Shown here: positions 2,116-64,000 of the stretch, in pieces
Layout: every line of letters starts with the position of its first letter
How positions within the stretch are numbered: the first letter of the stretch is position 1
Source of the DNA: Bdellovibrionales bacterium
GTDB taxonomy: Bacteria; Bdellovibrionota; Bdellovibrionia; Bdellovibrionales; JAKFYE01
DNA length: 64,000 nt
Assembly (NCBI GenBank): GCA_021731045.1
Contig: JAKFYE010000018.1
Coordinates: 3,310-67,309, forward strand
Direction of reading: 5' to 3'
Notes under the pieces: generated by a model
Database searches by the model: none
What the model was told of the DNA's origin: nothing
The model's input: only the letters and a program-made list of their open reading frames with translations
Position numbers and translations under genes: made by a program

Positions 2116-3549
2116 ATGATTGTACATTCTTTTATTCGAGATGGATTTGGATTACAAAAAATTGAAATTGAACTTTCAATAGTTCCTGGTTTACCACAAA
2201 TGAAATTTTTAGGAATGCCGGATGGTTTAATTAAAGAGAGCGAAGCGCGAATTAAAACTGCGATTCGCAATCAAGGCTTTGAAATTCCAGCTTCAAAACA
2301 AGTGCTCATTCAACTTCGACCCAATGATATTAAAAAACACAGTCGCGGATTAGATCTTGCCGTAGCGGCTGCATTTTTGTGGGAGACCGAACAACTTCCA
2401 AAGCCAGAACGTCCCAAGCCGGCTCTGTATGGTGAATTGAATTTTAATGGTGAAGTCATCGCGCCTCTTGATTTCTGTGATGTTGAAACTTTAAAATCTC
2501 AAGAGACGATCATCACCGGAAAGTCCGAAACCGATCTTGGCTTTGACTATTTAAGTGTTAACGAACTTCGAACTCTAAGTGTACCGACAATCCACACAAA
2601 ACAAGATGTCACTTTGCAAATTGTTGAGCCTTCTGTTGAAAATCTTTTTTTATCTAAAGCCCAGGCACGACTCGCCATGATTATTGCCGCTGGAGAGCAC
2701 AGCGCTTTATTTGCTGGTCCTCCGGGTACAGGCAAATCCACAATGGCCGAATATATTTCAAAAATTCTTTGTCCTAATTATGAAGACTTAAAAATGAGCG
2801 CACAAATTGCGAGGTATTTTGGAGAAAAACTGGAATGGATTCCCACTCGTCGTCCTCATCATAAATCCACATTGTTATCAATGATCGGAGCCGGCCGACC
2901 GCCTGAGCCCGGTGAGGTGACGAGAGCCCATGGAGGGGTTCTTATTATGGATGAATTTCTAGAGTTTGATTCCAAGCTTCAAGAGGCTCTCCGTGAGCCT
3001 ATAGAAACGGGAAAAATTATGATATCTCGTGCCGGTGCGGCCAGAGAATTTCCGGCAAAATTTCTTTTACTTGCCACGACCAATTTATGTAAGTGTGGGC
3101 AATTAATACCTTCAACTAAAAATCAGTGTCAGTGTCGAACTGTTCGTAAGCGGCAGTATGTCGAAAGGCTTTCAGGTCCCATACTCGATCGCTTTCAAAT
3201 TATTTCGTTTAGCCATGAATATTCTCAAGAGCACGACGTCTCTCTTACAGATATTCGTCATCGCGTAAAAAGAGCACGTGAATTTGCGCAAGAAAATAGA
3301 AAGCAGCACGCACCTAACAGTCGGATTTCAAGTTTAAGCGTAGAAAAAGACATTAGCCCCAGTCTACAAAAAGTATTTAAACTCAAAATGTCTTCGCAGC
3401 GGAGGTTAAAATCTGTGCTCCAAGTGGCCCGTACGATTGCCGATTTAAGCGAAAGCCGCGAGATTCGGGCCGGCCATCTTAATGAGGCTCTCGCGTTGTC
3501 ATTGCGCTCGGCCACTCGTATCCAAGTTGATTTACAGCGCTATATTTAA
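2116..3549 (+). CDS. comM: YifB/ComM family Mg-chelatase-like ATPase
   Basis: N-terminal Lon-like domain (GLPQMKFLGMPDGLIKESEARIKTAI), Walker A GPPGTGKST, Walker B VLIMDEF, and LSGPILDRFQI. Start moved to ATG 2116 to match the usual family N-terminus. Confidence 0.9.
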   Translation: MIVHSFIRDGFGLQKIEIELSIVPGLPQMKFLGMPDGLIKESEARIKTAIRNQGFEIPASKQVLIQLRPNDIKKHSRGLDLAVAAAFLWETEQLPKPERPKPALYGELNFNGEVIAPLDFCDVETLKSQETIITGKSETDLGFDYLSVNELRTLSVPTIHTKQDVTLQIVEPSVENLFLSKAQARLAMIIAAGEHSALFAGPPGTGKSTMAEYISKILCPNYEDLKMSAQIARYFGEKLEWIPTRRPHHKSTLLSMIGAGRPPEPGEVTRAHGGVLIMDEFLEFDSKLQEALREPIETGKIMISRAGAAREFPAKFLLLATTNLCKCGQLIPSTKNQCQCRTVRKRQYVERLSGPILDRFQIISFSHEYSQEHDVSLTDIRHRVKRAREFAQENRKQHAPNSRISSLSVEKDISPSLQKVFKLKMSSQRRLKSVLQVARTIADLSESREIRAGHLNEALALSLRSATRIQVDLQRYI

Positions 3550-3645
3550 TCTTGCTTAAAATCTGAGCCTCATACGGCTCAGGCCGCATCGCAGATCGAC
3601 TTGACACCTAGTTTCCAATTCGTCAAAACTGTGATTCATCATTAG

Positions 3646-3719
3646 GGTGACGTAGCCAAGTGGTTAGGCTCCGCTCTGCAAAAGCGGCTACGCCGGTTCA
3701 ATTCCGGCCGTCACCTCCA
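3646..3719 (+). tRNA. tRNA-Cys (anticodon GCA)
   Basis: Hand-folded cloverleaf. Acceptor GGTGACG/CGTCACC is perfect. Anticodon arm CCGCT-CTGCAAA-AGCGG. T arm GCCGG-TTCAATT-CCGGC. Discriminator is U73 (a CysRS identity element) and CCA is encoded. Confidence 0.9.
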
Positions 3720-3720
3720 A
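3709..3720 (+). repeat. attL core (3' end of tRNA-Cys)
   Basis: CGTCACCTCCAA, identical to 14726-14737. Confidence 0.55.
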
Positions 3721-4038
3721 CTTACTTGCGCAGTTTCGCGCTGAAAACTAAGTACTAGAAAACATTAAACAATCGCCTTATGTGCTGAGAAGGTTTTAGC
3801 TTTTGAGCATTTCTTAAAATTTCGCTGCATTTCTGTCGTTGGCCTGAATTTGGCCACAATCTGGCCTGAATGCGAAGTTGTAGTTTCGTGTTCCGTTTTA
3901 GCGAGAACAAGAACTCGCGACACAGTGTCCATCCATATCTTCCCTTTAGAAAGACTTTTGCCCTTACAAGAGCATTTTAATCTGTCTTAAGGGAATTGTT
4001 TTTAGAGCGTCTCTTCTTAACCCGAAAAAGAGGCGGCA

Positions 4039-4320
4039 ATGGAATTAAAAAGAATGCTGAAGCAGTTGATTTATCAGAACGACATAAGTATCGCGCATTT
4101 GGCGCGAGCTACTCGTATTCCTCGACAGACGATAGATAACTGGATGACGGGGCAAGAGCCACGAAGTCTTAAACAAGTAAAAAAGGTAGCGGATTATTTT
4201 AAGGTCCCAATGGATTACTTGTGTTTTGGTGAGACGCCAAAAGATAAATCAATTCGCGAGTACGAAGATCAAATTAATGCAGGTGTTTTTGAAGTGGTTT
4301 TAAGACGAGTTAAACGTTAA
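4039..4320 (+). CDS. XRE/Cro-C1 family HTH transcriptional regulator
   Basis: 93 aa. ISIAHLARATRIPRQTIDNWMTGQEP is a typical HTH_3 helix-turn-helix. First gene inside attL. Confidence 0.8.
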   Translation: MELKRMLKQLIYQNDISIAHLARATRIPRQTIDNWMTGQEPRSLKQVKKVADYFKVPMDYLCFGETPKDKSIREYEDQINAGVFEVVLRRVKR

Positions 4321-4329
4321 GGGGACAAC

Positions 4330-4755
4330 ATGAAATTATTTATACTACTATTCATTTTACTTAGCTCTGTGCGGACTTTAGCTACTCCCGCTGAGTGCAA
4401 GCTTTCGTTCTATAATTTTAATAAAGCCCATGAATCTAGGGTGCAGGCAGTGGGAGTTGATGAAGGTGGAAGCATAACTCTAGGCTTCAGACATGATGTA
4501 AATGCAAACCTTCAAGAACAAGCTGATATGGCGAGTTTAATTAGAGCGTGTGTATCGTCAGGTATGATGTCGCGCGCACTTTATAAGTTCAAAAAAGACG
4601 ATAAAGTCCCACACACGATTTGCACAAACTTAAATGCTATAACCCTTGGTATGGTTTGTTTGCCGTATAAATGCGAAGGGCCAAAGGGCAAAAGTTGCGC
4701 GCCGCCGCGTTTGATAAAGGGCGATGCCGATGGCAACCCTATCGAAGTGAAATAA
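4330..4755 (+). CDS. small exported cysteine-containing protein
   Basis: Signal peptide MKLFILLFILLSSVRTLA. Six Cys in the mature part. Starts 10 nt after the XRE gene, with GGGGA ahead of the ATG. Confidence 0.6.
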   Translation: MKLFILLFILLSSVRTLATPAECKLSFYNFNKAHESRVQAVGVDEGGSITLGFRHDVNANLQEQADMASLIRACVSSGMMSRALYKFKKDDKVPHTICTNLNAITLGMVCLPYKCEGPKGKSCAPPRLIKGDADGNPIEVK

Positions 4756-4928
4756 AGCATTAAAATGACCTAGTATTAGCTGCAAATTCTTCACGGACCG
4801 TTAAAACAGCGTGAACTTCAGAGCTAGAACCGTGGTTTCGGTCTCTTATGTACGGGCCAATAATAATCCAAATGACATGCTTCAATTCGACATGCTAACT
4901 AAACCCAAATTTCAAATTGGAGAGAGTT

Positions 4929-6872
4929 ATGATCATACGATCTGTGGTATTGGCTTGTTTTATAGGTCTGATTGTCGGTTGCAGCTCATCTTCCGTAAAA
5001 CCCGAGCCTCAAACCGTGTCTCTGAATAACGACACACTAATTAAGTTGGGTATTACCGCCGCGTCTCCAGCGCCCCAATATCCGTTTGAAGAGTTTTATA
5101 AGACATCTCAAATTTCGGGTTTCGAATTTAAGTCAGATAAGTCTGGCGTTTATTTCCTGAAGAAAGATGCAAAGGTTGAGAATGTTTTTGAATACAACTT
5201 TGCGAACCGTAAGATAAAGCAGATCACTTTCTTCCCAGAAACAGTATCCTCATTCCTCGTTGATCCAAAAGGAAAGTACTTAATCATCCAAAAAGATATT
5301 GGTGGAAGCGAACTATACGATCTTTACAGATTTGATTTAAAAACAAAAAAAGTTAAGCGACTTACTGATGGGAAAAACGAAGAGAGAAATTTTGCTTGCG
5401 ATCTTACCAAAGATGGTCGCAAACTTTACTTTGCTCAAAGCCGCGAGAAACGCAATTACTCTGACATTATGTCTTACGACTTGGTCTCAGACAAAATTGA
5501 AACCGTTCTTAAGGCAAATAAAGAACAACTTTATTGTAGTACTTTAAACAAGAAGAATAACTTACTAGGATTTACGAAATTTATAGACAACAACGAAGTC
5601 CATTTAGGATTGCTCGATCTCGACACTGGAAAATACAAATATATTTTAAACGAAAAAGGGATCAAGTCATCTGACGGGGTGTTTGCAGATAACACTGACA
5701 ACATTTATTTTTTGAGCACCAAAGGTTCGGACCTCTTCAGACTTTGGGTTTATAATACAAAAAGTGAACTGGTAGAGCTCGCCAAAACAGATATTTCAAA
5801 TAGCATTGAAGGTGTAGGAATTTATGGTAGCGGAAGTGTATCAGTTGTTCGTTATCGAGGTGAGTTAGCGCCTAAAGTGAAGGTCTATTCAGGAGTACTC
5901 GAAGCTGAGTTGAAACTTCCCATTGCGCCGGAGAACATTAAGAATGCGATGTTTGATAAGGAAGATCCAAAACTAGGTATTATCATCGCTCAAAATGGTG
6001 CAGCACCAAAGCAATACTATGTCTTAAATCACGACAAACTCGATTTGCTTTATAATTCTAATCAATCCTCCATTAAAGATGAGCACTTTTCAAAATCATC
6101 CTCGCTTTTTGTGAACAGCTTCGATGGTCTTAAAGTGCCAGCTCACTATTTTATTCCAAACGGTACTTCTAGTACGAATAAGAAGCCAGTCGTCTTCTGG
6201 ATTCATGGCGGTCCTGAAGACAATGTCGATCCTGAGTTTTCTTCAGTGATTCAGTATATTTTAAATCAGGGTTTTATTGTTGTTGCCCCTAACGTGCGAG
6301 GAAGCACAGGGTTTGGTAAAGCTTATCAGTTTAAGGATAACGGCGATTGGGGTGGCGGACATATCAAAGACATAGTTGCGGTGGCGGAGTTCACGCGTGG
6401 TCTTGATTTTGTTGATAGTCAGAATATATTTGTACTTGGTGGCAGTTTTGGTGGATTTAGTGTGATGTCACTTATTACTCAGTATCCTAAAGTATTTAAA
6501 GCCGCAGTGGATATTTTCGGCCCCGTCGAGTTCGCATCATTTGTTAACAGCTGGCCACCGCAAGTTCAGCCGTATTGGATCACTGAATTAGGTTTTGATC
6601 CTCGTCTTGATAAAGCTAAAAACGAAAAAGTGTCGCCGTTATATCATGTGCAAAATATTTCAATTCCTCTTCAGGTTCACCAAGGCGCGAACGATATTCG
6701 GGTACCAAAAGCACAGTCTGACTTGCTAGTTTCTGAAATCAAAAAAGCCGGAAAAGATGTTGATTACTTCGTATATGATAGCGAAGGCCACGGGTTTACA
6801 AAGTTTGAAAACTCAAAATTATGCTTTACTCGCATTACTGATTTTTTCCGAAAACAATCTAATAAGCAATAG
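4929..6872 (+). CDS. S9 family serine peptidase lipoprotein (prolyl oligopeptidase / dipeptidyl peptidase type, with N-terminal beta-propeller)
   Basis: Lipobox LIVGC. Nucleophile elbow GGSFGG, and VFWIHGGPE, NDIRVP and SEGHGF match the Ser-Asp-His triad context of S9 peptidases. ATG 4929 is preceded by GGAGAGAG. Confidence 0.85.
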   Translation: MIIRSVVLACFIGLIVGCSSSSVKPEPQTVSLNNDTLIKLGITAASPAPQYPFEEFYKTSQISGFEFKSDKSGVYFLKKDAKVENVFEYNFANRKIKQITFFPETVSSFLVDPKGKYLIIQKDIGGSELYDLYRFDLKTKKVKRLTDGKNEERNFACDLTKDGRKLYFAQSREKRNYSDIMSYDLVSDKIETVLKANKEQLYCSTLNKKNNLLGFTKFIDNNEVHLGLLDLDTGKYKYILNEKGIKSSDGVFADNTDNIYFLSTKGSDLFRLWVYNTKSELVELAKTDISNSIEGVGIYGSGSVSVVRYRGELAPKVKVYSGVLEAELKLPIAPENIKNAMFDKEDPKLGIIIAQNGAAPKQYYVLNHDKLDLLYNSNQSSIKDEHFSKSSSLFVNSFDGLKVPAHYFIPNGTSSTNKKPVVFWIHGGPEDNVDPEFSSVIQYILNQGFIVVAPNVRGSTGFGKAYQFKDNGDWGGGHIKDIVAVAEFTRGLDFVDSQNIFVLGGSFGGFSVMSLITQYPKVFKAAVDIFGPVEFASFVNSWPPQVQPYWITELGFDPRLDKAKNEKVSPLYHVQNISIPLQVHQGANDIRVPKAQSDLLVSEIKKAGKDVDYFVYDSEGHGFTKFENSKLCFTRITDFFRKQSNKQ

Positions 6873-7001
6873 ACTTACTGGGTATACACAGAAAGTTTTT
6901 AGAGTAACCACGCCCGTTAATTGTACGTTTTTAACGGATGCGCGGCGCTTAATTAACCATGCAGCCTAAACATTAGTCTGCCGTTTCTATATACTATCTA
7001 G

Positions 7002-7883
7002 ATGTCTGCCACATATTTACTAGCTAAAATTAACGCCTTTTGGAAATATGGCTTTTCTGCTGGAAAGCAATTTGCGAATCCTCACTTTCAATCCGAACAG
7101 CTAAATAATTATCTTCTGCATATACCTGCGTTACTCAAAAAAGAGGGCCATAGACCCGATTTGCTTCGCGAGCATTATGAAAGTATTTTTTCACCTATGG
7201 TTGGACTGGGGTTTACTTGTGCTAATCATAATTATGGTATTAGAGTTTTAGGTCTTAGTGGTGCATCTTTAGAGGGTCTAATGCTATTGAGACCTCAGAT
7301 TGAGGCTCTTCTTATCTTTTTTTACTTTATTGAATGCAAATCTGATCTAAAAGCTATCGAAGCAAGAGTCGAGAAGTTCAACGACTGGATTCAAGTTAAG
7401 ATGAGACAAAATCACAAGAAGTCCAAAAGTTTTGATTGGACAAAGTTTATTTACAAGAACCGTTCATTTGAAAAGACAGTAAGACAGAACTACGACAGCG
7501 TTAAAGCAAAATATAAAAATGACGAGGCTGCGTTTTTAGAGTTATGTGAATTTACAGGTTTTCTTACCTCTAAAGAGAAATTACGCTTAGCTAAAGATTT
7601 TGATATATTAGGTCTTTATAACCATATAGTCGCTGAAGCCTCGGCGAGTATTCACGTGGCAGATTTATACGACAGAATGATTCGTGTTGGAGATGTGTTC
7701 TTTCAGTTTAGATTGAAGGATGAATCAAACGGATTCTGGCCTATGAGTTTAAGTAATCTCTTATTATTTCAATATTTTTTTACGCTGTCAGAGTTTATGG
7801 GGGCAAAGGATACAATTAGTAAAGACCTTCTAAAAATATTCGCCGCGCAAAAAAAGAAAGGACCTGCGGCGAAAGGAGTGTGA
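7002..7883 (+). CDS. hypothetical protein (orphan island cargo)
   Basis: 293-aa ORF, apparently all-helical, with no signal peptide, TM segment or catalytic motif that I recognise. Confidence 0.55.
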   Translation: MSATYLLAKINAFWKYGFSAGKQFANPHFQSEQLNNYLLHIPALLKKEGHRPDLLREHYESIFSPMVGLGFTCANHNYGIRVLGLSGASLEGLMLLRPQIEALLIFFYFIECKSDLKAIEARVEKFNDWIQVKMRQNHKKSKSFDWTKFIYKNRSFEKTVRQNYDSVKAKYKNDEAAFLELCEFTGFLTSKEKLRLAKDFDILGLYNHIVAEASASIHVADLYDRMIRVGDVFFQFRLKDESNGFWPMSLSNLLLFQYFFTLSEFMGAKDTISKDLLKIFAAQKKKGPAAKGV

Positions 7884-7948
7884 TGTTGAATTTTGTAGGT
7901 TAAATCCCATATTATGTTCTGAGCAGCCGCCTTCAAATATACTTATGA

Positions 7949-8608
7949 TTAAAACTCATCAGACATTTTGGTTAAAACGTCTCTAACTTTAGGCGCTGTT
8001 TGGTAGAAGCTACTTTCGGAGACAAGATAAGGAAGAAGATTGGCTACAAAGTGTTTCGCGGCGAAAAGTTCGATCACAAAAGTCAATATTACAAAAAATA
8101 TCATAAAAAATATGTCGTATATATGCAGTGTATGAACTGAAAAGAGAGCAAGTATTAGTGTCATCTCTGCACCCAAGTGAAGGCGGACAAGTTTCTTTTT
8201 ACCGACTTTTATTTTCTCAACAATTTCCTTTTTCAAATGCTGATTTACTTCTTGCGAGGTTGACGGAATTGTTGCTGCTTTGACAGCCCACTCATCAATT
8301 ACATTTTGCCATTTAAAGAAACTTTTTGTCCAGTTTGCGAAAATTCCTCGAAACCATGTTGCACATTTTATTCCAACTACAATGACTAAGGAACATAGAA
8401 TGACATTCCAAAAAGTTGCGCTTTTAAATACAAGTTTTGTGACATCAAATACTTTGCTATTCATTAATGAGATCCAAATGCCATTCTCTAAACTAGGAGT
8501 TTGGAGTGCGTACATTGAAACAAAAAATACGAAGGCGCGCGTAAGCGGAAGTGCTTTCGCTAGATCAGATACATATTGTTTTTTTAGATCATCTATTAAT
8601 GATTCCAT
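7949..8608 (-). CDS. small integral membrane protein (about four TM helices), second gene of an orphan operon
   Basis: 219 aa. Hydrophobic segments AFVFFVSMYAL, FWNVILCSLVIVVGI, MTLILALFSV and IFFMIFFVILTFVIELF. Start lies 4 nt downstream of the stop of ORF 8613..9491. Confidence 0.65.
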   Translation of the reverse strand: MESLIDDLKKQYVSDLAKALPLTRAFVFFVSMYALQTPSLENGIWISLMNSKVFDVTKLVFKSATFWNVILCSLVIVVGIKCATWFRGIFANWTKSFFKWQNVIDEWAVKAATIPSTSQEVNQHLKKEIVEKIKVGKKKLVRLHLGAEMTLILALFSVHTLHIYDIFFMIFFVILTFVIELFAAKHFVANLLPYLVSESSFYQTAPKVRDVLTKMSDEF

Positions 8609-8612
8609 TTTT

Positions 8613-9491
8613 TTATTCTATCAGTCTAATAAAATAAATGTCACCTGCTTTAGGGTCGAATGAGCCATATTCAACTAGAGGGCAGCCGATAAAAGTTATT
8701 TTACGATCTTCTCCCAAGTAGTTTCTAACAAGAATGAAATCCTGCTCACTGGGGAAATTTATCGTGGCTTGTTTACCACCCTCTATAAGGATAATTCCCT
8801 TTTGCGACTTTGAGTTTAATTCCGTTACTTTTCCTGAGTATAGAACTGGTTCGGCAAGTGTCTTCGCCGCAACAACTTTATGAAATGCTTTGCTGGTTTC
8901 TAAATCAAATTTGAATTTTACTTGTGTCTGGCTTGTAATACTAATTTCAATAGAATTAGTAGAATCACCTGCTCTTCTAACTATTGAAGCTATTTGATCA
9001 AATTCTTTTGCAATCGACCTGTCGCCATAGCTTCTCTTAAAATCCATTTTTCCTTTAATTAAATCTTGATAGCTAATAGGTGTAACCATTTCATTTACTA
9101 CTTCCAATTTTTTCCTTTCGGCGACCTCGCTAAGTTTTTGAATGTTGTTTGAACCCTCTCGTTGGGCTTCTTTCATCGCTTGCGAAAGAGTGTCTGCAAT
9201 TCTTTTTAATACTCGTTGTGCCAGCTCGGGGTTACTGGCTGCTAAAAGGTCCAATATGAATCCGCCATTTTGGGGTACCGGAACTAGAAATTCAATTTCA
9301 GCTAAATCGTCAATTTTTACTTTTGCATGCTTGTGAACCCCTCCCTTTTCAATATCCAAATACGCTCGCCCGATTGCGCATTGGGTGTGATATAAACTTT
9401 TGGCCAAATAGCGTAATGGAATCCGGTGTTCGCGTGCAAGACTGCCTTCAAAGTGCAACTGTAAGTTCGGTCTATTCAAAGTTGGTGGCAT
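8613..9491 (-). CDS. hypothetical soluble protein, first gene of an orphan operon
   Basis: 292-aa ORF with no recognisable motif. GAGGAAACC precedes the ATG on the minus strand. Confidence 0.65.
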   Translation of the reverse strand: MPPTLNRPNLQLHFEGSLAREHRIPLRYLAKSLYHTQCAIGRAYLDIEKGGVHKHAKVKIDDLAEIEFLVPVPQNGGFILDLLAASNPELAQRVLKRIADTLSQAMKEAQREGSNNIQKLSEVAERKKLEVVNEMVTPISYQDLIKGKMDFKRSYGDRSIAKEFDQIASIVRRAGDSTNSIEISITSQTQVKFKFDLETSKAFHKVVAAKTLAEPVLYSGKVTELNSKSQKGIILIEGGKQATINFPSEQDFILVRNYLGEDRKITFIGCPLVEYGSFDPKAGDIYFIRLIE

Positions 9492-9510
9492 GGTTTCCTC
9501 ATAAGCAAAA

Positions 9511-9535
9511 TCTATAAATAATATCTATTTATAGA
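9511..9535. promoter_or_regulatory. putative operator: perfect 10-bp inverted repeat
   Basis: TCTATAAATA-ATATC-TATTTATAGA. It lies 20 nt upstream of the 9491 start, in the divergent intergenic region 9492-9721. Confidence 0.4.
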
Positions 9536-9721
9536 ATCGGATACTTTGAGGCTTGTGTGCACAGACTATAGGTCCAGGACTTTCGTGTTCGGTAATTGTC
9601 GAAGTGCGGGAGTTGAAAAAAAATAAACTTCTAGCCTGTTTGTGCGGGCTTGGCCACTCGTTCCATTTTTTTGTGTGGGAGGACCCTTGTCGTACGGGTC
9701 GTATGGTCGTATATACGGATT

Positions 9722-10441
9722 ATGGACAATCTAGTTAAAGATCTTGCTAAATATATCAAGCTTAAGGAGTTCTTAACTCTAAATGAGTTGGAAGACCATC
9801 AGCTTTTAACTGCCATCGTAAATAATGATTTGCAACTGTATGCCCATGTTGATGAAGGTGCTCTGATTGAAATTGACGAGTATAGAAACAAGAAGCGAAT
9901 AGGCACAGTGATCGACGAGTTTTTGGAAGTGTATCCAGAGGCTTTTTATGGTGCGTTCGTCAACGGAGTTGATCTAACTTCAAACTTTTTAAAGACAGAG
10001 CGCCCAATAGAAGACTGGCTACCAGATTTTGATTGGTCCGGGTTGTACTACGATACAACTCCGTCTGTTATTAAGATTGAGAATCTATATCTGAAACGTG
10101 TTCGTTCTGCGCAATATTCTCCATCGGGTACGACGGGACGACATAACGACATAGTTGTAATACAAAAAAATTGGAGCCAAATTAGAATTGGGGATGATTG
10201 TGTCAGATTAAGTCGAAGTCAGCATTTTTTATTGGAAGCACTATACTGTGCTCAAACTTCTTTAGAAATTGATCAACTTGTAAGAATCGGTGAGGAGCAA
10301 AAGTATTCGCTTATAATTAGAAGCAGAGATAAAGCATTACGAAGATTAGTCGTGCAAGGTGATGGAAAACTGTTTCCAAAACGACATTTCAAAGCATCGC
10401 AACTTTTAAAAAACGCAGTGTTTGCCGTAACAGTCGAGTAA
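9722..10441 (+). CDS. hypothetical protein upstream of the island primase
   Basis: ORF 9650..10441 trimmed to the first ATG (9722, MDNLVKDLAKYIK). No recognisable motif. Confidence 0.5.
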   Translation: MDNLVKDLAKYIKLKEFLTLNELEDHQLLTAIVNNDLQLYAHVDEGALIEIDEYRNKKRIGTVIDEFLEVYPEAFYGAFVNGVDLTSNFLKTERPIEDWLPDFDWSGLYYDTTPSVIKIENLYLKRVRSAQYSPSGTTGRHNDIVVIQKNWSQIRIGDDCVRLSRSQHFLLEALYCAQTSLEIDQLVRIGEEQKYSLIIRSRDKALRRLVVQGDGKLFPKRHFKASQLLKNAVFAVTVE

Positions 10442-10499
10442 AGCCGGTACCAAATGGTTCCAAATGGTCCTATGATTTGAATTAGAGAATCATGTACAA

Positions 10500-10517
10500 G
10501 CCTCCTAAATAGGAGGC
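10500..10517 (+). promoter_or_regulatory. hairpin sequestering the primase Shine-Dalgarno sequence
   Basis: GCCTCCT-AAAT-AGGAGGC forms a 7-bp stem whose 3' arm is the AGGAGG SD, 4 nt before GTG 10521. Confidence 0.35.
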
Positions 10518-10520
10518 ATT

Positions 10521-12602
10521 GTGAACGAAGTTTTAAAGTACGCACTATACACAGCAAAGAACGGTATTAAAGTTTTTCCTCTGGCAAGCATAGACAGTAA
10601 AAGGAATTGCACTTGTTTTAAAGGCAAAAACTGCCAACAAATCGCAAAACATCCAATCTTGGCGGGAAGTTGGAAAAAATATGCAACTACAGATGAACAA
10701 ACAATAAAATCTTGGTTTGAAAATGGGAAGTATAACTTCGCGCTGGTTGTGCCAGACAACTATGTCGTCGTAGATGTGGACCCCAAAAATGGAGGAGATC
10801 TTGCACTTGCAAACTTTGAAAAAGAGTTTGGCAAGTTAACACATACAGTTGAAGTGAAAACCGGAAGTGGCGGAAGGCATTTGTTTTATTTGAAGCCAAA
10901 GCAACTGGCGGGAGTTCACGTTAAGAATCGAGAAATTATAAGGGGTGTAGATATAAAGGCAGCAGGTGGGTATCTAGTAGGCGTTGGAAGCAATCACAAG
11001 TCAGGAAACAAATATATACAGGCCGGTGTGATGGGTTTTGATTTAACTAAGGTGCAGGAGTTGCAGCACGAAGATCTCATTAAGTTATTAAATCCACAAA
11101 AGAAGGCGAGTAAAGAAAATCACCAAAGCTCAGTGAAACCGATAATTGATGTTGGCTTTACCGATGGCAAAGTGGCTGAGGGATCGCGAAATCATTTTCT
11201 TTTTGCACTGGCTTGTTCACTTAGGGGCCGAGGTTTTTTCGAAGATCAAATACTTGGAGCCTTAAGGGTTATTAATAGTCTTCACTGTACTCCGAGTCTA
11301 TCAGAGGATGAAGTTATACTATGTTCTAAAAGTGCTGCACGTTACGCGGTCGGTGCAGCATCTCCGGAAAAGCCCAAATATTCAATGAATGACGCTTGTT
11401 TCGACGGAGCACTAGGAGAGGTTGTTAGAATTATATCTGAACATACAGAATCATCAGCAATAGGTGTGCTTTGCACATTGCTCACGATTTGTGGAAATGC
11501 AATGGGAAGAAAAGTAAAATTAGACGTTGGAAATATGAATCACGCGTCAAACCTTTTTTTAATTCTAGTTGGAAGCACGTCTAAAGGGCGAAAAGGCACT
11601 TCATATAATGTTGCCCGGGAAGTGAGCCAACAGTTCATAGATTCAAGTTGGTTTTCAAGAGTCGAAACGGGGTTAGCAAGTGGCGAAGGGTTGATTCAGG
11701 CGGTTAGAGATAAAAAAACCATTCTTAACGAAAAAGGGCAAGACGTAACAATAGATGAAGGAACTAAAGATAAACGACTACTAATATATGAGCCTGAAGT
11801 GTCTAAAGTATTAAGAGTAGCTAAGCGAGAAGGAAATACCGTGAGCCAAATTTTGCGTCAAGCTTGGGATGGGGGACGAATTCAATCTTTATCGAAAGCT
11901 TCTCCACAGGTGGCAACCGGTCACCATATTTCTATGATAGGCCATATCACTAACCATGAACTTCTTACGGAAATTGAATTGAATGACATTTTCAATGGAT
12001 TCGCTAATAGGTGTCTTTGGGTGTATGTAGAAAGAGAAAGACTGTTACCGCTCGGCGGTTCAATTATTGACTTTTTATGTGATTATAAAAAACTTGAAGG
12101 AATATTCTATGAGCCTTCGGAGCGGACTTCTCTAAAACTTTCCGAAAAAGCCAAGCCTGTATGGACGCAGATATATCAAAGTCATAATACGTCGTTTGAT
12201 ACCCAAGATGAAAAACTTAATGCGTTGGAGGCCAGAGGCACTGACCATATTCTTAGGCTTGCTTTAATCTATGCGTACGCTGACAGAGCCACAGAAATTT
12301 CTCCTCAGCACTTGCATTCTGCCCAGTCGATTTGGAATTATTGCAGGCTGTCTATCGCATATGTCTTTGGAACAAAGGCTCAGTATGCGAGCCGTGTTGA
12401 AGAGAAGATTCTTGAACTATTTAATAATCGCACTGAACTTACTAGGACACAGATACGAGATGGCCTAAACCGAAACTCAAGCTCTAAAGAGATCAACGAA
12501 ATTCGACAGCGATTGCTTGAAAAGGATCTAATCCAAGTTGATTTTAAAGATGGGACCGAGGTTTGGACGAAGAAAATAGACAACTCGATCAATTCGCACT
12601 GA
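10521..12602 (+). CDS. bifunctional Prim-Pol primase/polymerase with PriCT-like and DUF3987-like (helicase-type P-loop) domains
   Basis: Prim-Pol motifs GIKVFPL, VVVDVDPKNGG and TGSGGRHLFY. PriCT-like EGSRNHFLFALACSLRGRG...SEDEV. P-loop-like LVGSTSKGRKGTS. GTG start follows AGGAGG. Confidence 0.85.
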   Translation: MNEVLKYALYTAKNGIKVFPLASIDSKRNCTCFKGKNCQQIAKHPILAGSWKKYATTDEQTIKSWFENGKYNFALVVPDNYVVVDVDPKNGGDLALANFEKEFGKLTHTVEVKTGSGGRHLFYLKPKQLAGVHVKNREIIRGVDIKAAGGYLVGVGSNHKSGNKYIQAGVMGFDLTKVQELQHEDLIKLLNPQKKASKENHQSSVKPIIDVGFTDGKVAEGSRNHFLFALACSLRGRGFFEDQILGALRVINSLHCTPSLSEDEVILCSKSAARYAVGAASPEKPKYSMNDACFDGALGEVVRIISEHTESSAIGVLCTLLTICGNAMGRKVKLDVGNMNHASNLFLILVGSTSKGRKGTSYNVAREVSQQFIDSSWFSRVETGLASGEGLIQAVRDKKTILNEKGQDVTIDEGTKDKRLLIYEPEVSKVLRVAKREGNTVSQILRQAWDGGRIQSLSKASPQVATGHHISMIGHITNHELLTEIELNDIFNGFANRCLWVYVERERLLPLGGSIIDFLCDYKKLEGIFYEPSERTSLKLSEKAKPVWTQIYQSHNTSFDTQDEKLNALEARGTDHILRLALIYAYADRATEISPQHLHSAQSIWNYCRLSIAYVFGTKAQYASRVEEKILELFNNRTELTRTQIRDGLNRNSSSKEINEIRQRLLEKDLIQVDFKDGTEVWTKKIDNSINSH

Positions 12603-12609
12603 GTAAACC

Positions 12610-12855
12610 ATGAAAACCAAATTCAAAGTGCATAATCAGATTGAACAACCTAATGACATGGAATACCAAAGAGTTGAGACGCTCTTTGATAAAAAAATAT
12701 GGATGAATACGAGAGAAGCAGCGGAATACTTAAGTGTTTCGGTTAATAGCCTTCGATTGAAGGTGTGGAAGCGGCAAATACCTGCTTACAAATTTAACCG
12801 GCACCTTCGATTTAAGAAAATAGAGCTAGATCGGTATATGAGGCCACTAAGATAG
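12610..12855 (+). CDS. excisionase/AlpA-like HTH DNA-binding protein
   Basis: 81 aa. WMNTREAAEYLSVSVNSLRLKVWKRQIPAYKFNRHLRFKKIELDRYM matches the MerR-type excisionase HTH pattern. Lies directly upstream of the integrase. Confidence 0.7.
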   Translation: MKTKFKVHNQIEQPNDMEYQRVETLFDKKIWMNTREAAEYLSVSVNSLRLKVWKRQIPAYKFNRHLRFKKIELDRYMRPLR

Positions 12856-12863
12856 GGGACCCT

Positions 12864-14012
12864 ATGTCGATACAAGAATATTATCTAAACGATAAAAAGT
12901 ATTTCAAAGTCATTGTAAATTTGCGCTCGAAAAAGGATCGAAATCTTAAAGTTCAAAAATACAGATCAAGTATTGATGACTTAAAAGAAGCCGAGAAAAT
13001 TGAACGATCACTTTTTCGAGATGCTCACGAAATAATGGCGCGAAAAGAAAATCGTGAAAGAAGCTGGGGACCTTTGGTAGATGAATGGGAGCTTGCGCTG
13101 CGGAACGGAAGTGGCGCAATGCGCTCGCTCGTTAAAACTACTCAAGAGGACTACATCAATGTCCTCCGTCTCTACACGATAAGTTGGTGGAAGATGCCCG
13201 CTGATCAAATAACACCCGCAGATGTGCGCGATCTTCTAATAAAAGTTCACGAATTGGGTAAGTCACAAGGTCGTCAACAACGTCTCAAGACTGCCATAGA
13301 TGGGATTTTTAAATGGGGCATAGAAACAAGACGAATAAAGTTTGTTCATGCAAGCCCAGCGCGCGGAGTAAGTTTGGTTGGTCGAGTTGATGAAAGACCA
13401 CCAGAAATTCTCACGCTCAATGAAATCAAAAAACTACTTAGGTGCGCAAAGGAAATGAATCACCGCTTTTATTCAATATGGGCGATTGCGCTGCTAACAG
13501 GTTGTAGAACAGGTGAGCTTTATGCTCTTGAATGGAATGATGTGGATTTTGAAAACAGACGAGTGATGATTTCAAAGTCATACAACAAACGAATCCGTAC
13601 CTATGGCCCAACCAAGGCAGGATACTGGCGCGAGGTGCCCATGAGTGGTGAGCTTGAGAGAATGTTGAAAGAGTTAAAGCTTAACAGTGCTGGAAGAAAA
13701 TGGGTTTTACCTCGTCCTCACGAATGGACGAGTTACCAACAGGCAGCTGTTTTGCGTCAATTCTGTGGTGAAATTGGCATTCCATCTATTCGCTTCCACG
13801 CCTTACGCGCTTGCTTTGCGACTCAGTTGATAAAAGACGCCGTAGCACCTTCAGTTGTTATGAAAGTATGCGGTTGGAAGGATTTGAAGACCATGCAGAG
13901 GTATATCCGTATGGCAGGGATTGAAATTAATGGCGCCACCGACGCGCTAAAAATTCTCCCTGAAGATCAGGTTATGGGACGAGTTGCCCATCTTTTTGAC
14001 GTCGGGAGTTAG
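12864..14012 (+). CDS. tyrosine-type integrase
   Basis: 382 aa. TGCRTGELYAL (Arg I), HALRACFATQL (H-x-x-R), and GWKDLKTMQRYIRM (catalytic Tyr). Confidence 0.9.
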   Translation: MSIQEYYLNDKKYFKVIVNLRSKKDRNLKVQKYRSSIDDLKEAEKIERSLFRDAHEIMARKENRERSWGPLVDEWELALRNGSGAMRSLVKTTQEDYINVLRLYTISWWKMPADQITPADVRDLLIKVHELGKSQGRQQRLKTAIDGIFKWGIETRRIKFVHASPARGVSLVGRVDERPPEILTLNEIKKLLRCAKEMNHRFYSIWAIALLTGCRTGELYALEWNDVDFENRRVMISKSYNKRIRTYGPTKAGYWREVPMSGELERMLKELKLNSAGRKWVLPRPHEWTSYQQAAVLRQFCGEIGIPSIRFHALRACFATQLIKDAVAPSVVMKVCGWKDLKTMQRYIRMAGIEINGATDALKILPEDQVMGRVAHLFDVGS

Positions 14013-14192
14013 TTGTAAATATTGACACTGAACAGACAGATTTATAGGCTGGCCACGGTTTCATGAAATATCCAGCCGCTCGCGGCCATTTGGCTACGGT
14101 GAAAATTTCTGTCTTGTCTCTAAAGGTCTAAACAACTTTTTAAGGACTTCTTAACGCGAGCAAAGAAATAAAGTCCATGAAAGGTTGCAAAT

Positions 14193-14672
14193 ATGCAAAC
14201 CAATATCCCGTCGACAGAGAGCCTTAAAGAAAAGGCCAAAGTAGTTCGCAAGTTCCTAAAAGATAAATGCAATGCGGATGTTTCGCATAGTCACTGTCTT
14301 GAACTTATCGCGCAAGTGTATGGCATCAAGGATTGGAACACGGCTTCCGCTGTATCCAAACCAGTGGTGAACAAAAGCACTCTGCCGTTTAAGGTTGAGA
14401 CTGTCGGTGACATGAGAAAGGCATTGGAGCCGTTCAAGGATTCGGATGTCATTGATGGCATGTATGAATTTAAGATCGCAGATTTCTTAGATAAGATCGA
14501 AAACGCTAGCGAGGACGGCATAATTTCCCAAGAGTTTCGTTTAACCTTGGAAGATTTGGATGAAGGGAAAGCCGAACCAAGAATAGCCAGTTTTAAATTG
14601 AATCTGGAGCACGAAGACGTTCGCTTTGAGTCCGAAGATGGAATTCACGGTGGAGACCTAAGTTTATTTTAG
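14193..14672 (+). CDS. hypothetical protein (last island gene)
   Basis: 159 aa. The N-terminal segment VSHSHCLELIAQVYGIKDWNTASA resembles, from memory, a short helical domain seen at the N-termini of some proteins annotated as glyoxalase-superfamily. Acidic C-terminus. Confidence 0.5.
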   Translation: MQTNIPSTESLKEKAKVVRKFLKDKCNADVSHSHCLELIAQVYGIKDWNTASAVSKPVVNKSTLPFKVETVGDMRKALEPFKDSDVIDGMYEFKIADFLDKIENASEDGIISQEFRLTLEDLDEGKAEPRIASFKLNLEHEDVRFESEDGIHGGDLSLF

Positions 14673-14725
14673 GCCAAGAAGGTGTTTGTCGAGGACTTAA
14701 CTTGTTAATCTTGTTGAGTAATCGA

Positions 14726-14737
14726 CGTCACCTCCAA
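14726..14737 (+). repeat. attR core (duplicated tRNA-Cys 3' end)
   Basis: CGTCACCTCCAA in direct orientation, lying 714 nt past the integrase stop. 13 of 14 positions match if extended 2 nt to the 5' side. Confidence 0.55.
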
Positions 14738-15173
14738 ATTTCTGCTAAGAAATAGCCGCTAATTGAACTAAGTAACGAAAATCATAAACAAATGGATTCA
14801 ATGAGTTACCGAGTTCGGAACGCTTCAAACAAGACCACAAATAACCAAAGATAACAGTCTTGCTTTGGCATTTGCCTGGCATCGACCTGACATTTTTGGT
14901 GGTCTTTAACACGGGGTCTATCGGCCCAATTAATAAACGAAAAATTTAGTCTGATTTTTTTAATCCACGAGGAGGATTTATGTAGTCGTTCAATATTCGT
15001 CACTTTTACCTCCACGCTTGTCCTAACAAGCTATTATGAAAGGCAATCTTTTAACTCACGCGAGACAATCAAAGAGGAAGGAATTTCGTTGCACCTGACA
15101 GGTAATACTTCAAAATATAGAATTACAAAATGCGATATCTCGAAACGAAACTTTCTATGAACATCATTCACAT

Positions 15174-21887: not shown

Positions 21888-24305
21888 ATGAAGAAAAAGC
21901 TACTCCTCTTGTTATCTTTAGTATGTGTTGCAAGTTGTGGGATGAACGATGATGAAGACTTTAATCGTGACGAAACCAAGGCCCCTAAACTTGTTTTTAA
22001 AACTAAAGACGATGCATTAGCTCTCTTGCCAGCAGCTCAAAGAGCAGCTTTTTTAGGTTGGGAGCATCAAACCATAAAAACATGTTCGTTGTCAGAAGCT
22101 TTGCTTTTCAATGCTGGCACCCAAGTTAATTCCAAACCTGTTTCTACAGGAATCGATGCCGAAATTATTTTGCAAAAAACAAATCACACTCTTCTTCTTG
22201 AAATTCCTCAGTCTGTTGGTTCAGAGCCAGAATACATATTTTTTGGTGCTCCACGATTGGATATGAGCGAATACTCTGATGTTTCAGAGCTCAACTTTAC
22301 TAATAATGGCACTCAGTACGAAGTTGATGTTGAAGCAAGAATGGAAGCGGGACGTTGTCGTATTTTTGCTGGCGGAACCGAAATCTTTTCGACCTATATT
22401 TTGAGCGTTTTACCGGTAGATGCTCATTACAATGCGGCCAAGAAAATAGAAAAAGCCAATAGTATTAAAATTAACCCTTCAACGTTTAATTCAAAAAATG
22501 GTTCGGCGACAATACAAGGACAGTTAGCTTCAACCGCATTAAATTTCGGATTAGATGTTCGCACATCTAATCCTGAAGGCGGATACGATGGCAACTCAAG
22601 TACAACATACCAGATTGCATTGAATCGATTGAGCGATATTTTTGGTTTAGAAAATGCTCAAGTTCAGCAGCAATATTTTCCGTCTTCTTTTATTTCGTCT
22701 TACAGGCTTTCACTTCGCTTAGAAAGTGTTGATCATACATTGGATGTTGTAGGCACTGGCACACCAACGACTTCCACAGATATAATAAATGCGTCGCCGT
22801 TTGGTTATTACTTCTCGAATATTTATGGAACAGAAAAAGAATTAAAATCTTTTAAATCACCTGGCGCTCATTCATTAAAAATGAAAGTTATTATTCGTCC
22901 ACCAGACTCAACACCTAGCCAAGTTCTAAATATAGTAAATCCAGAAACTTGGGCCTTTAGCTCTGTGAGCGAATTTGTAGGTTCAATCGAAAAAGGTGGA
23001 ATAAGTCGCTTGGTCTCGTTTGAGCACATCGGCGCGTATGTTATCTCTCCAAACGAAGCAACAGAGTGTTTCTCAAAACGTTTAGCAGGAGCAAAACTAT
23101 ATCAAACACCACTCGCATCGGCGATTCAGCTTAATGTTTCTTATTATGATGTGACGGAAACTTGTGCTGTTTATACTAATAACTTGATAAAAGATGTGTC
23201 TGTTTCCAAGGATGTGCTTAACTCCGTTCTTTTAATGTTAGCTTCTAGTACGCCATCATCAGCATTTAACTATCAAGGTTGGGACCGTTTTTTTGTTGAT
23301 ATCGTACAAGAATTGGCTGGAAAAAACCTAGATGCGTTGCTCGGTCAACCCAACATTATTAAAGTGCCGCTATTCAAAAAAACCCTAGAGGGCGTTAATA
23401 AATTTTTAATATTAATAGCAAACTTAAGTCTTCAAACTTACCAAAATGAGTTTGTAAGACTAGCTGCAAAGGCGTCTTTGGTTGGCTTTGATTTAGTTCC
23501 GGAGCAAGAATTATTTGCTGTTACAGCAAAAACCGTCGGTAGCGCATTAACCACGTCATATAAAACGTTTTTAAATGAATTTCTTGGGGATACGAAAAGT
23601 AATGCCAAAATATTACATAGTATCGCCTTAATTCCTGTTGAGCGATTAGATAGAATCAAAAATCTTGAAACCACAGCGCGAAGCTTAGGTTTAACTTCTT
23701 GGACGAACATTGAAATAGACAGATACATCCAAAGAACACATCTCACTCCAGATGAAGAAGTCTTAAACTGGGAAAATTCTTTGAACGGAATACAATGGTT
23801 TTTATCTCGTGAGGTTGCACGCCTTCAAGGAGAAAAATCTCCGGCGATTTCAAATAATCAAAACACACTCTTTTTGCAGGCAATGCGAGAGTCATGGCCA
23901 CAAACTTACTATCAATACTTAGAAAAGTTCAGCGAGTTGAGGAGATTTGTGCCAGCGTGTGCGGGCAAAAAAGATGTAACATCATATTTAGCCTGTGCTG
24001 TTGCGGCAGGAGTCTCAACAAACCGAGGTTATCTTTTATATGTAGGGATCAGAAACTCGTATTGGACTTTAACGAATAGCCTTCTAGCTAATTTTAATGA
24101 TCTTGAAGATATAGATCCCCTCGCACAAGAAATCACTAAACGTTTTTACGAAAACATGTGGGGATCATGTAGTGCAGGAGCCATCGAGAATAAGACTTTA
24201 AGGTTACTCTCGCATATTGCGGCTTATAAGTCCGATAGAAAAAACTGGGAAGACTCTGCGTTTAAAGCGGCGCTTCAATCTACGCTTACGAACTGTTCGT
24301 ATTAA
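21888..24305 (+). CDS. large lipoprotein, function unknown
   Basis: ATG 21888 lies 7 nt after AAGGTGGG. Lipobox VASCG. 805 aa with no recognisable catalytic motif. Confidence 0.65.
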   Translation: MKKKLLLLLSLVCVASCGMNDDEDFNRDETKAPKLVFKTKDDALALLPAAQRAAFLGWEHQTIKTCSLSEALLFNAGTQVNSKPVSTGIDAEIILQKTNHTLLLEIPQSVGSEPEYIFFGAPRLDMSEYSDVSELNFTNNGTQYEVDVEARMEAGRCRIFAGGTEIFSTYILSVLPVDAHYNAAKKIEKANSIKINPSTFNSKNGSATIQGQLASTALNFGLDVRTSNPEGGYDGNSSTTYQIALNRLSDIFGLENAQVQQQYFPSSFISSYRLSLRLESVDHTLDVVGTGTPTTSTDIINASPFGYYFSNIYGTEKELKSFKSPGAHSLKMKVIIRPPDSTPSQVLNIVNPETWAFSSVSEFVGSIEKGGISRLVSFEHIGAYVISPNEATECFSKRLAGAKLYQTPLASAIQLNVSYYDVTETCAVYTNNLIKDVSVSKDVLNSVLLMLASSTPSSAFNYQGWDRFFVDIVQELAGKNLDALLGQPNIIKVPLFKKTLEGVNKFLILIANLSLQTYQNEFVRLAAKASLVGFDLVPEQELFAVTAKTVGSALTTSYKTFLNEFLGDTKSNAKILHSIALIPVERLDRIKNLETTARSLGLTSWTNIEIDRYIQRTHLTPDEEVLNWENSLNGIQWFLSREVARLQGEKSPAISNNQNTLFLQAMRESWPQTYYQYLEKFSELRRFVPACAGKKDVTSYLACAVAAGVSTNRGYLLYVGIRNSYWTLTNSLLANFNDLEDIDPLAQEITKRFYENMWGSCSAGAIENKTLRLLSHIAAYKSDRKNWEDSAFKAALQSTLTNCSY

Positions 24306-63858: not shown

Positions 63859-64000
63859 ATAGTTATTTTATGGTTTAGAACGCAGCTCGTATATAGACCT
63901 CGACCAAAAATAGTCGAGGTCTAGAAAGATTAAGTCCTATATCGAATTTTCGATTATCCACTTTATCTTCATCGGTCCCATCTTTTTTGTAGCTGGAGAG

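Follow-up and report, generated by a model that had tools for sequence, protein, structure and literature searches.

What does a cytoplasmic protein of no named family do when its gene is followed almost at once by that of a small membrane protein, and the two travel together? The question is raised by a pair of genes, here termed A and B, found in a 64,000-nucleotide (nt) stretch of DNA from a Bdellovibrionales bacterium (contig JAKFYE010000018.1, positions 3,310 to 67,309; the whole stretch is referred to below as the window). The short answer is that A–B is a self-contained, horizontally mobile two-gene accessory module of temperate phages and small integrative elements, in which A shares a transcript, and in most cases translational coupling, with a small membrane protein that has been exchanged on at least two or three occasions. 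The pair is also a credible candidate for a new phage-exclusion module. An earlier, model-generated annotation made from the letters of the window (the original prediction) had proposed the two proteins as a sensor–effector defence pair; its observation of the gene pair is confirmed here and its interpretation is partly supported. The two genes, identified by open reading frame (ORF) calling, are:

8613..9491, minus strand: gene A, encoding a 292 amino acid (aa) cytoplasmic protein, the conserved core of the module
7949..8608, minus strand: gene B, encoding a 219-aa polytopic membrane protein, the proposed effector

Loci encoding relatives of A were gathered from protein look-ups, GTDB genomes, IMG/VR and JGI metagenomes, and A proteins at least 90% identical to one another were merged, giving 41 distinct loci plus the window. 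Distinct loci were regarded as informative where enough sequence was available downstream of an intact A gene (n = 38). In 36 of the 38 informative loci, a transmembrane (TM) protein is encoded directly 3' of A on the same strand: homologues of the pair co-occur and are syntenic, as the original prediction had led us to expect. The identity of the protein encoded after A is not constant, however, and breaks down as follows:

24 distinct loci: B, recognised by hidden Markov model (HMM)
4 distinct loci (L024, L041, L044, L049): B-like by topology and N-terminal motif
6 distinct loci: a different membrane protein, B'
2 distinct loci (L031, L032): another protein with a single N-terminal TM segment
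2 distinct loci (L030, L037): no membrane protein

That A is constant while the membrane protein varies identifies A as the core and its partner as a replaceable module. Constancy of the soluble protein combined with interchangeable membrane partners fits sensor–effector logic, and on this point the cytoplasmic-plus-membrane pairing emphasised in the original prediction is borne out. The two loci with no membrane protein may reflect either partner loss or the existence of further effector types. In L030, A is followed by a dGTPase-like HD protein (2485–3804) and in L037 by a soluble 328-aa protein (1087–2073).

The A family is small and of uniform length. An exhaustive HMM search of 1.84 billion representatives identified 169 relatives of A, 151 of these at E <= 1e-10. 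All full-length members are about 280–312 aa long, no fusions to other domains were seen, and the A protein of the window shares no more than 43% identity with any of the others. Near-invariant residues are G16, Q37, K54, F195, P271, D279, G283 and D284, and the closer half of the family shares the motifs YGDRSIxKExDQI and, at the C-terminus, CPxxEYGxFDPxAGDIxF. Hydropathy analysis of A reveals no hydrophobic segment, and no HTH, RHH or AbrB DNA-binding domain was detected in it. Neither A nor B could be placed in a named family, as the original prediction had stated: scans of Pfam, NCBIfam and PADLOC gave no significant match to either protein. What the prediction overlooked is that, judging by profile matches, PHROG families of unknown function already exist for both. 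A matches phrog_28486 with E 3.3e-69 (residues 10–290 to positions 18–298 of 299) and B matches phrog_31922 with E 5.4e-8 (residues 1–203 to positions 1–211 of 227), full-length matches which indicate that both have already been clustered as phage or prophage proteins.

Two other candidate relationships of A were considered and rejected. DUF7946 is a 183-position domain with a Pfam gathering score of 27 bits; A scores 15.9 bits, over A residues 11–34 and profile positions 2–25 only, and scans with two A-family consensus sequences were no better (13.7–14.2 bits, profile positions 1–33). Weak DUF7946 matches were found in 21 of 100 A-family members (best E 7.4e-6). With the match to A and the two consensus sequences restricted to the N-terminal 25–33 residues and scoring below the gathering threshold, membership of DUF7946 was rejected. 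Likewise, a match between an A profile built from 100 sequences and the influenza HA2 stem in the PDB (E ~0.002) was judged to be a product of helical/coiled-coil composition bias. The HA2-like match covers profile positions 71–170, which fall in a helical hairpin of A for which no similar fold was found.

An AlphaFold2 model of A (pLDDT 86, pTM 0.84; pLDDT being the predicted local distance difference test score and pTM the predicted TM-score) offers a clue that sequence searches do not. When compared with the PDB using Foldseek, only the C-terminal ~80 residues (about 210–290) find matches, and the top 50 matches are all OB-folds: IF1, SilF, RPA14/32, CspA and S1-like domains are among the partners, with probabilities of 0.95–1.0 and target TM-scores of 0.5–0.69, albeit with weak E-values (1e-3 to 1e-1). 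In the model, strands at 216–226, 231–236 and 240–245 are followed by a helix (249–256) and two further strands (265–274 and 284–290), giving the five-stranded closed barrel with a helix between strands 3 and 4 that is expected of this fold. The C-terminal third of A is thus predicted to be an OB-fold, and the most conserved motif of the family, P-x-x-E-Y-G-x-F-D-x-x-x-G-D-I-x-F, falls on the last two strands of the barrel and the loop connecting them. The original prediction had recognised no Walker, nuclease, HEPN, TIR or HTH motif in A; the lack of a match to any named family stands but the OB-fold had been missed.

Foldseek found no PDB match for the N-terminal two-thirds of A, an alpha/beta region. 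A search of BFVD did identify three uncharacterised phage proteins matching the A model over its full length with E-values of 3e-10 to 2e-9: A0A8S5QA00 (a DUF6575-containing protein from a siphovirus), Q6NE06 (from Leptospira phage LE1) and A0A8S5T657. These matches have query TM-scores of 0.35–0.51, and DUF6575 is not among the Pfam families listed for the A family after scanning of 100 members. At 11–13% identity and with root-mean-square deviations of 9–13 Å, a distant superfamily relationship between A and DUF6575 proteins is a lead only, derived from the model. Vassallo et al. 2022 (PMC9519451) list DUF6575 among the domains of the defence systems that they validated in Escherichia coli.

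B is predicted to span the membrane about four times. Its hydropathy profile displays three strong segments (64–82, 140–158 and 166–184) and a weaker one near 22–40 that is stronger in homologues, so that the "about four" helices of the original prediction is a fair description. B-type partners from 11 other loci align with it end to end and share a layout that begins with an amphipathic helix at the N-terminus and continues through TM1 and TM2 to a helical insert of ~55 aa on the cytoplasmic side, followed by TM3 and TM4. Two residues are invariant in this alignment (Glu148 in TM3, and Pro193) and two near-invariant (Tyr12, and Asp165 at the start of TM4). A word-indexed homologue search with B recovered only B itself. 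The alternative partner B' is 245–249 aa long with two TM segments, all copies being found in Burkholderiales-type loci, and is unrelated to B (hhalign probability 0.3%). Pfam scans detected no match to SLATT in either B or B'.

Where, then, is the pair found? Six IMG/VR viral contigs carry A-family loci; a scan with P0053 on its own matched no viral contig. Of about 18 distinct contexts that were annotated, at least nine are prophages or integrative elements and five have conflict-type neighbours, these being counts without a background model. In L017 (CP090009.1), A–B is flanked on one side by a P2-like tail gene cluster, at its gpD end, and on the other by genes for HTH_3, nSTAND3, integrase and D5_N primase proteins. 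The nSTAND3 NTPase of this locus is a 1275-aa protein (5472–9299, minus strand) encoded between the integrase gene and A–B, with a small HTH_3 gene divergent from the pair. In L016, L021 and L023, A follows the Zot and secretin genes of inovirus (filamentous) prophages, with G2P also present in the gene sets; B' follows A in L021 and L023, whilst the L016 contig stops just past A. In L018 and L019, A–B comes after DUF2971 and SLATT_4 genes and has a GPA-type replicase downstream, and in L024 it is cargo of an element with integrase, HTH_17 and GPA replicase genes in a layout like that of the window. On the IMG/VR prophage contig of L018/L019, the DUF2971 (314 aa) and SLATT_4 (168 aa, two TM segments) genes occupy 8035–9630, directly upstream of A–B, and look like a separate candidate conflict module.

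Elsewhere, the pair adjoins an HTH and ImmA/IrrE regulator (L022) or a type III restriction–modification system (L012), or has caspase-WD40, PIN and nSTAND proteins (L001) or toxin–antitoxin genes (L004) nearby. In L007, L013 and L026 it stands alone between housekeeping genes. The closely related cyanobacterial copies (L004, L007 and L013) are flanked by different housekeeping genes, pointing to insertion and recent mobility rather than to a core role. A Pfam scan of 148 neighbouring ORFs yielded mostly integrase, HTH_3, GPA, terminase, portal, Zot, secretin and G2P proteins, and few systems were matched when the same ORFs were scanned with PADLOC. Taken together, these contexts indicate that the pair moves between mobile elements in distant bacteria. 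In L010, from Undibacterium, a 511-aa protein with a weak HATPase_c match is encoded directly after A–B' (11787–13322) and may be further cargo.

How the two genes are expressed can be read in part from the sequence around them. The relevant features are:

8609..8612, minus strand: the A–B junction, 4 nt, TAA AAAA ATG
9496..9500, minus strand: Shine–Dalgarno sequence GAGGA, 4 nt before the A ATG
9511..9535, no strand assigned: perfect inverted repeat TCTATAAATA-ATATC-TATTTATAGA, with arms of 10 bp and a 5-nt spacer

The layout of two minus-strand ORFs lying 4 nt apart, as first described, was reproduced in both coordinates and lengths by ORF calling and inspection of the sequence: the A stop codon (TAA) occupies 8613–8615 and B starts with the ATG at 8608. 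B has no Shine–Dalgarno sequence of its own at the junction, and it is likely that translation of A and B is coupled across these 4 nt. Elsewhere, where A is paired with a B-type protein, the two genes may overlap by as much as 8 nt or be separated by a few nt. The GC content of the A–B segment, at 0.354–0.363, is the lowest within the first 20 kb of the window. Within the 3' end of A there is a sigma-70-like site (8615–8644, minus strand; GTGACA, 18 nt, TAGAAT, with an extended TG) that agrees with the consensus at 10 of 12 positions and whose -10 element overlaps the A stop codon, 7 nt ahead of the B ATG. On its sequence this could serve B as an internal promoter, although such sites are no more frequent in the region than chance would have it (7 observed versus 5.8 by chance).

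The inverted repeat upstream of A was central to the original prediction, in which it was a perfect 10-bp repeat 20 nt upstream of the A start, an operator, and part of a 230-bp divergent intergenic region. The repeat is indeed perfect, with its arms at 9511–9520 (TCTATAAATA) and 9526–9535 (TATTTATAGA), but ends 19 nt upstream of the A ATG, with GAGGA positioned between the two. The intergenic length depends on the start codon chosen for the divergent ORF, being 232 bp if this is the ATG at 9724 but only 158 bp if it is the TTG at 9650. Several -10-like hexamers are overlapped by the palindrome, whilst a scan for the sigma-70 consensus did not find a full promoter there. The claim that the palindrome is an operator fared less well. 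If perfect inverted repeats are counted whose arms reach 10 bp or more and whose loops do not exceed 10 nt, the window has three distinct ones, where first-order Markov simulations lead one to expect 1.7 +/- 1.7, so that the palindrome is not rarer than chance. (The two others are at 22548–22573, beginning GGATTAGATG, and 63894–63923, beginning TAGACCTCGA.) Its half-site has no second copy in the island at 0 mismatches. When the DNA 5' of A was scanned for inverted repeats in 16 other loci, any palindromes that came to light, as in L018 and L004, were peculiar to their locus and unrelated to that of the window; none of the homologues examined is preceded by the palindrome of the window. With upstream palindromes being unrelated in sequence from locus to locus, the operator as a conserved feature of the module was rejected. 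It is the position of the palindrome, over -10-like hexamers and a likely promoter just before the A start, that makes it a candidate operator, one that may be specific to this locus or element.

What might such a module do? A–B would make sense as a phage-exclusion or abortive-infection module that follows Rex-like logic without homology to Rex, and we give this explanation slightly less than an even chance. A would act as a cytoplasmic sensor or gatekeeper, its OB-fold binding a nucleic acid or protein made during infection by another phage, with the conserved EYGxFDPxxGD loop the prime candidate for the sensing surface. A would then release or activate its membrane partner, which would permeabilise or depolarise the inner membrane, possibly by way of Glu148 in TM3, which is invariant, and Asp165, which is nearly so and stands where TM4 begins. 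The infection would be aborted, protecting the resident element and sister cells. More speculatively, expression of A–B might be held down by an element-encoded repressor acting on the palindrome over the promoter. In its broadest form, the proposal is that A founds a new family of OB-fold sensors gating interchangeable effectors (the 4-TM B, the 2-TM B' and 1-TM proteins), analogous to RexAB but evolutionarily independent of it, and spread across Cyanobacteria, Proteobacteria and the organism of the window by inoviruses, P2-adjacent elements and primase/integrase islands; this we hold to be possible rather than probable.

In favour of the phage-exclusion proposal are the synteny (36/38), the partner swap, the uniform length of A, the OB-fold, the mobile contexts, the conflict-type neighbours, the PHROG families and the low GC content. 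A number of observations weigh against it. No homology to any validated defence protein was found: in PADLOC-DB v2.0.0, A, B and B' have either no match or only matches with E > 1e-3, and the only recurring match among 100 A homologues is to PDC-S42 (five members, best E 0.0045), with a single member matching PDC-M02B at 7e-6. The 148 neighbouring ORFs show no clear enrichment in known defence genes, a statement made with no background comparison. Searches with tblastn using three divergent A proteins and B against isolated phage genomes (INPHARED) and plasmids (PLSDB) found nothing. The OB-fold is a generic scaffold and no proof of nucleic-acid sensing. The step of membrane damage is inferred from topology and conserved charged residues only, and a single-sequence AlphaFold2 model of B, whilst all-helical, is of low confidence (pLDDT 58). 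Finally, A lacks a membrane partner altogether in L030 and L037.

Several of the same observations can be read in other ways. The pair might be a toxin–antitoxin or addiction system, with B or B' as a membrane toxin and A as its co-translated antitoxin, so that the island or prophage is kept by post-segregational killing rather than defended by phage sensing; in one variant, A may autoregulate the operon through the palindrome. The tight coupling of the genes, which overlap in many loci, their presence on integrative elements and among toxin–antitoxin genes (L004 and L001), the shuffling of the membrane partner and a palindrome placed directly upstream, as at many toxin–antitoxin operators, would all be accommodated. 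But A is large (~290 aa) and conserved, where antitoxins are usually the small, fast-evolving component, it has none of the HTH, RHH or AbrB domains searched for, and the palindrome is not conserved. We regard addiction as unlikely, with the rider that toxin–antitoxin and abortive-infection roles can coexist.

Somewhat further down the scale of probability lie two explanations in which no cell is killed or no phage is involved. Superinfection exclusion at the envelope, with inner-membrane B blocking phage DNA entry or assembly in the manner of Sie or Imm proteins, A serving as adaptor or stabiliser and the cell surviving, would suit a pair found in the accessory ("moron") positions of prophages and inoviruses and nearly always including a membrane protein. 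Classical Sie proteins work alone, however, and do not need a conserved 290-aa cytoplasmic partner with an OB-fold, and the replacement of B by 2-TM or 1-TM proteins points to a generic membrane effector rather than a specific entry blocker; we consider this explanation improbable. No more probable in our estimation is a non-defence accessory role, whether as a stress, transport or regulatory membrane pair or as a factor in replication or transfer of the element. The copies in L007, L013 and L026, alone among housekeeping genes with no mobile or defence neighbour, are what this would predict, as is the failure to find homology to defence families, and an OB-fold could handle single-stranded DNA for the element. 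On the other hand, the pair is present in unrelated elements (P2-like, inovirus, PrimPol island and GPA-replicase island) that differ in their replication and transfer machinery, its distribution is patchy and the family very small, and selfish or conflict cargo typically has the low GC content and varied sites of insertion seen here. The phage-exclusion reading keeps the largest share of our confidence.

In the window itself, A–B is cargo of a proposed integrative element of ~11 kb at a tRNA-Cys gene (3646–14743, boundaries proposed). The tRNA was identified by ARAGORN and Rfam, and a 12-nt repeat at its 3' end recurs at 14726, thereby bracketing an element of about this size. The other features of the island, with the primase and excisionase-like protein assigned by Pfam, are:

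3646..3719, plus strand: tRNA-Cys
3709–3720, plus strand: proposed attL, the 12-nt repeat CGTCACCTCCAA at the tRNA-Cys 3' end
4917–6872, plus strand: 651-aa protein whose N-terminus resembles that of a lipoprotein and whose C-terminus resembles prolyl-oligopeptidase (S9; GGSFGG motif), read from the sequence only
7002–7883, plus strand: 293-aa ORF convergent with B, with sub-threshold matches to DUF5677 (E 9e-4), DUF3990 and PADLOC PDC-M13B (E 0.005)
9650–10441, plus strand: 263-aa ORF divergent from A and directly upstream of the primase gene, the likelier start being the ATG at 9724
10521–12602, plus strand: PrimPol/PriCT_1/DUF3987 primase
12610–12855, plus strand: HTH_17 excisionase-like protein
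12864–14012, plus strand: tyrosine integrase, assigned from its R..HxxR..Y-type C-terminus and its position
14193–14672: protein with a Glyoxalase_8-type N-terminus, between the integrase gene and the proposed attR
14726..14737, plus strand: proposed attR, the second copy of the 12-nt CGTCACCTCCAA

The gene order is therefore HTH_3 protein (4039–4320), secreted 141-aa protein, S9 peptidase-like protein, weakly DUF5677-like protein, A–B and the 263-aa ORF, followed by the primase, HTH_17 protein, tyrosine integrase and Glyoxalase_8-type protein, with the integrase at the end of the island far from the tRNA. Judged by its sequence, the S9-like gene would be uncommon as cargo, and may instead mean that the island really begins further right, nearer 6900, and the ORF at 7002–7883 may be a second cargo gene. 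The product of the 263-aa ORF is a candidate regulator acting at the palindrome. It has no match in Pfam, PHROGs, NCBIfam or PADLOC, its exact sequence is absent from a collection of 15 billion proteins, and homology to the similarly placed 259-aa ORF of L024 was looked for and rejected.

If A–B does prove to be a defence module, the Rex-type design of a cytoplasmic sensor working through an effector that damages the membrane would have arisen here independently. The pair would also provide an OB-fold-based sensor whose natural effector swaps allow clean dissection of sensor–effector coupling, would be among the few candidate exclusion modules on filamentous (inovirus) prophages, would give functions to two PHROG families and would help to interpret the related DUF7946. 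Should it be an addiction or other accessory module, its value would be smaller, amounting to annotation of a rare family of mobile-element cargo. Candidate systems of this kind are numerous; the interest of A–B lies in its proposed OB-fold sensor, its swappable membrane partners and its carriage by inoviruses.

How does the pair compare with systems already described? Its closest entries in existing collections, phrog_28486 and phrog_31922, match A and B over their full lengths but offer no function, pairing information or name. Kiwa, like A–B, is a two-gene defence system made up of a polytopic membrane protein, thought in that case to be the sensor, and a soluble protein. Its genes are ordered kwaA then kwaB, however, whereas in A–B the soluble protein is encoded first and the membrane protein second, a reversal to which the original prediction had correctly drawn attention. 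The comparison with KwaA and KwaB/DUF4868 that it had called for was negative: neither DUF4868 nor KwaB was found in A or in 100 A-family members (Pfam and PADLOC), and KwaA was not found in B or 10 partner proteins (PADLOC). With these matches lacking and the gene order opposite, Kiwa was ruled out. The membrane effectors of CBASS, Pycsar and Thoeris, together with SLATT proteins, are small, interchangeable TM killing modules downstream of a conserved sensing or signalling component, as B and its replacements may be. They differ in their company: A–B has no cyclase, TIR, SMODS or SLOG component, and A has no domain that would generate a nucleotide signal. A positional link to SLATT does exist in L018, where a SLATT_4 gene lies directly upstream of A–B.

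A closer parallel is provided by RexAB. In the Rex system of phage lambda, a soluble DNA-binding sensor activates a membrane partner, leading to membrane damage or depolarisation and the abortion of infection. Like RexAB, A–B is an operon of a mobile element or prophage that encodes a soluble protein of ~280–290 aa first and a 4-TM protein second; unlike RexB, which has 144 aa, B has 219 aa and a long cytoplasmic insert. The likeness does not extend to sequence or fold. Pfam holds models of both RexA and RexB, and neither family was detected in Pfam scans of A, 100 A-family members and B-type proteins. PDB profile searches with A returned no RexA chain at E-values up to 10, and the 50 best PDB matches of A in Foldseek do not include RexA (8TWQ). 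Homology to RexAB was thus ruled out on three counts (Pfam, PDB sequence profiles and Foldseek), leaving a functional analogy only.

Rex-like behaviour in proteins dissimilar to Rex has precedents. The reports on mycobacteriophages Sbash (PMC6426596) and Butters (PMC7542560) describe their gp30/gp31 pairs, prophage-expressed combinations of a cytoplasmic and a multi-TM protein, as having Rex-like logic and no sequence similarity to RexAB. These pairs resemble A–B in their cytoplasmic-plus-multi-TM composition and differ in having actinobacterial hosts; a tblastn search of 50,697 phage records, Sbash and Butters presumably among them, found no match to any of three A-family members. For a RexAB-type pair of Pseudomonas putida, PP_5643/5644, membrane damage has been demonstrated experimentally (PMC12894663). 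Of the systems compared here, RexAB offers the best analogy for how A and B may work together.

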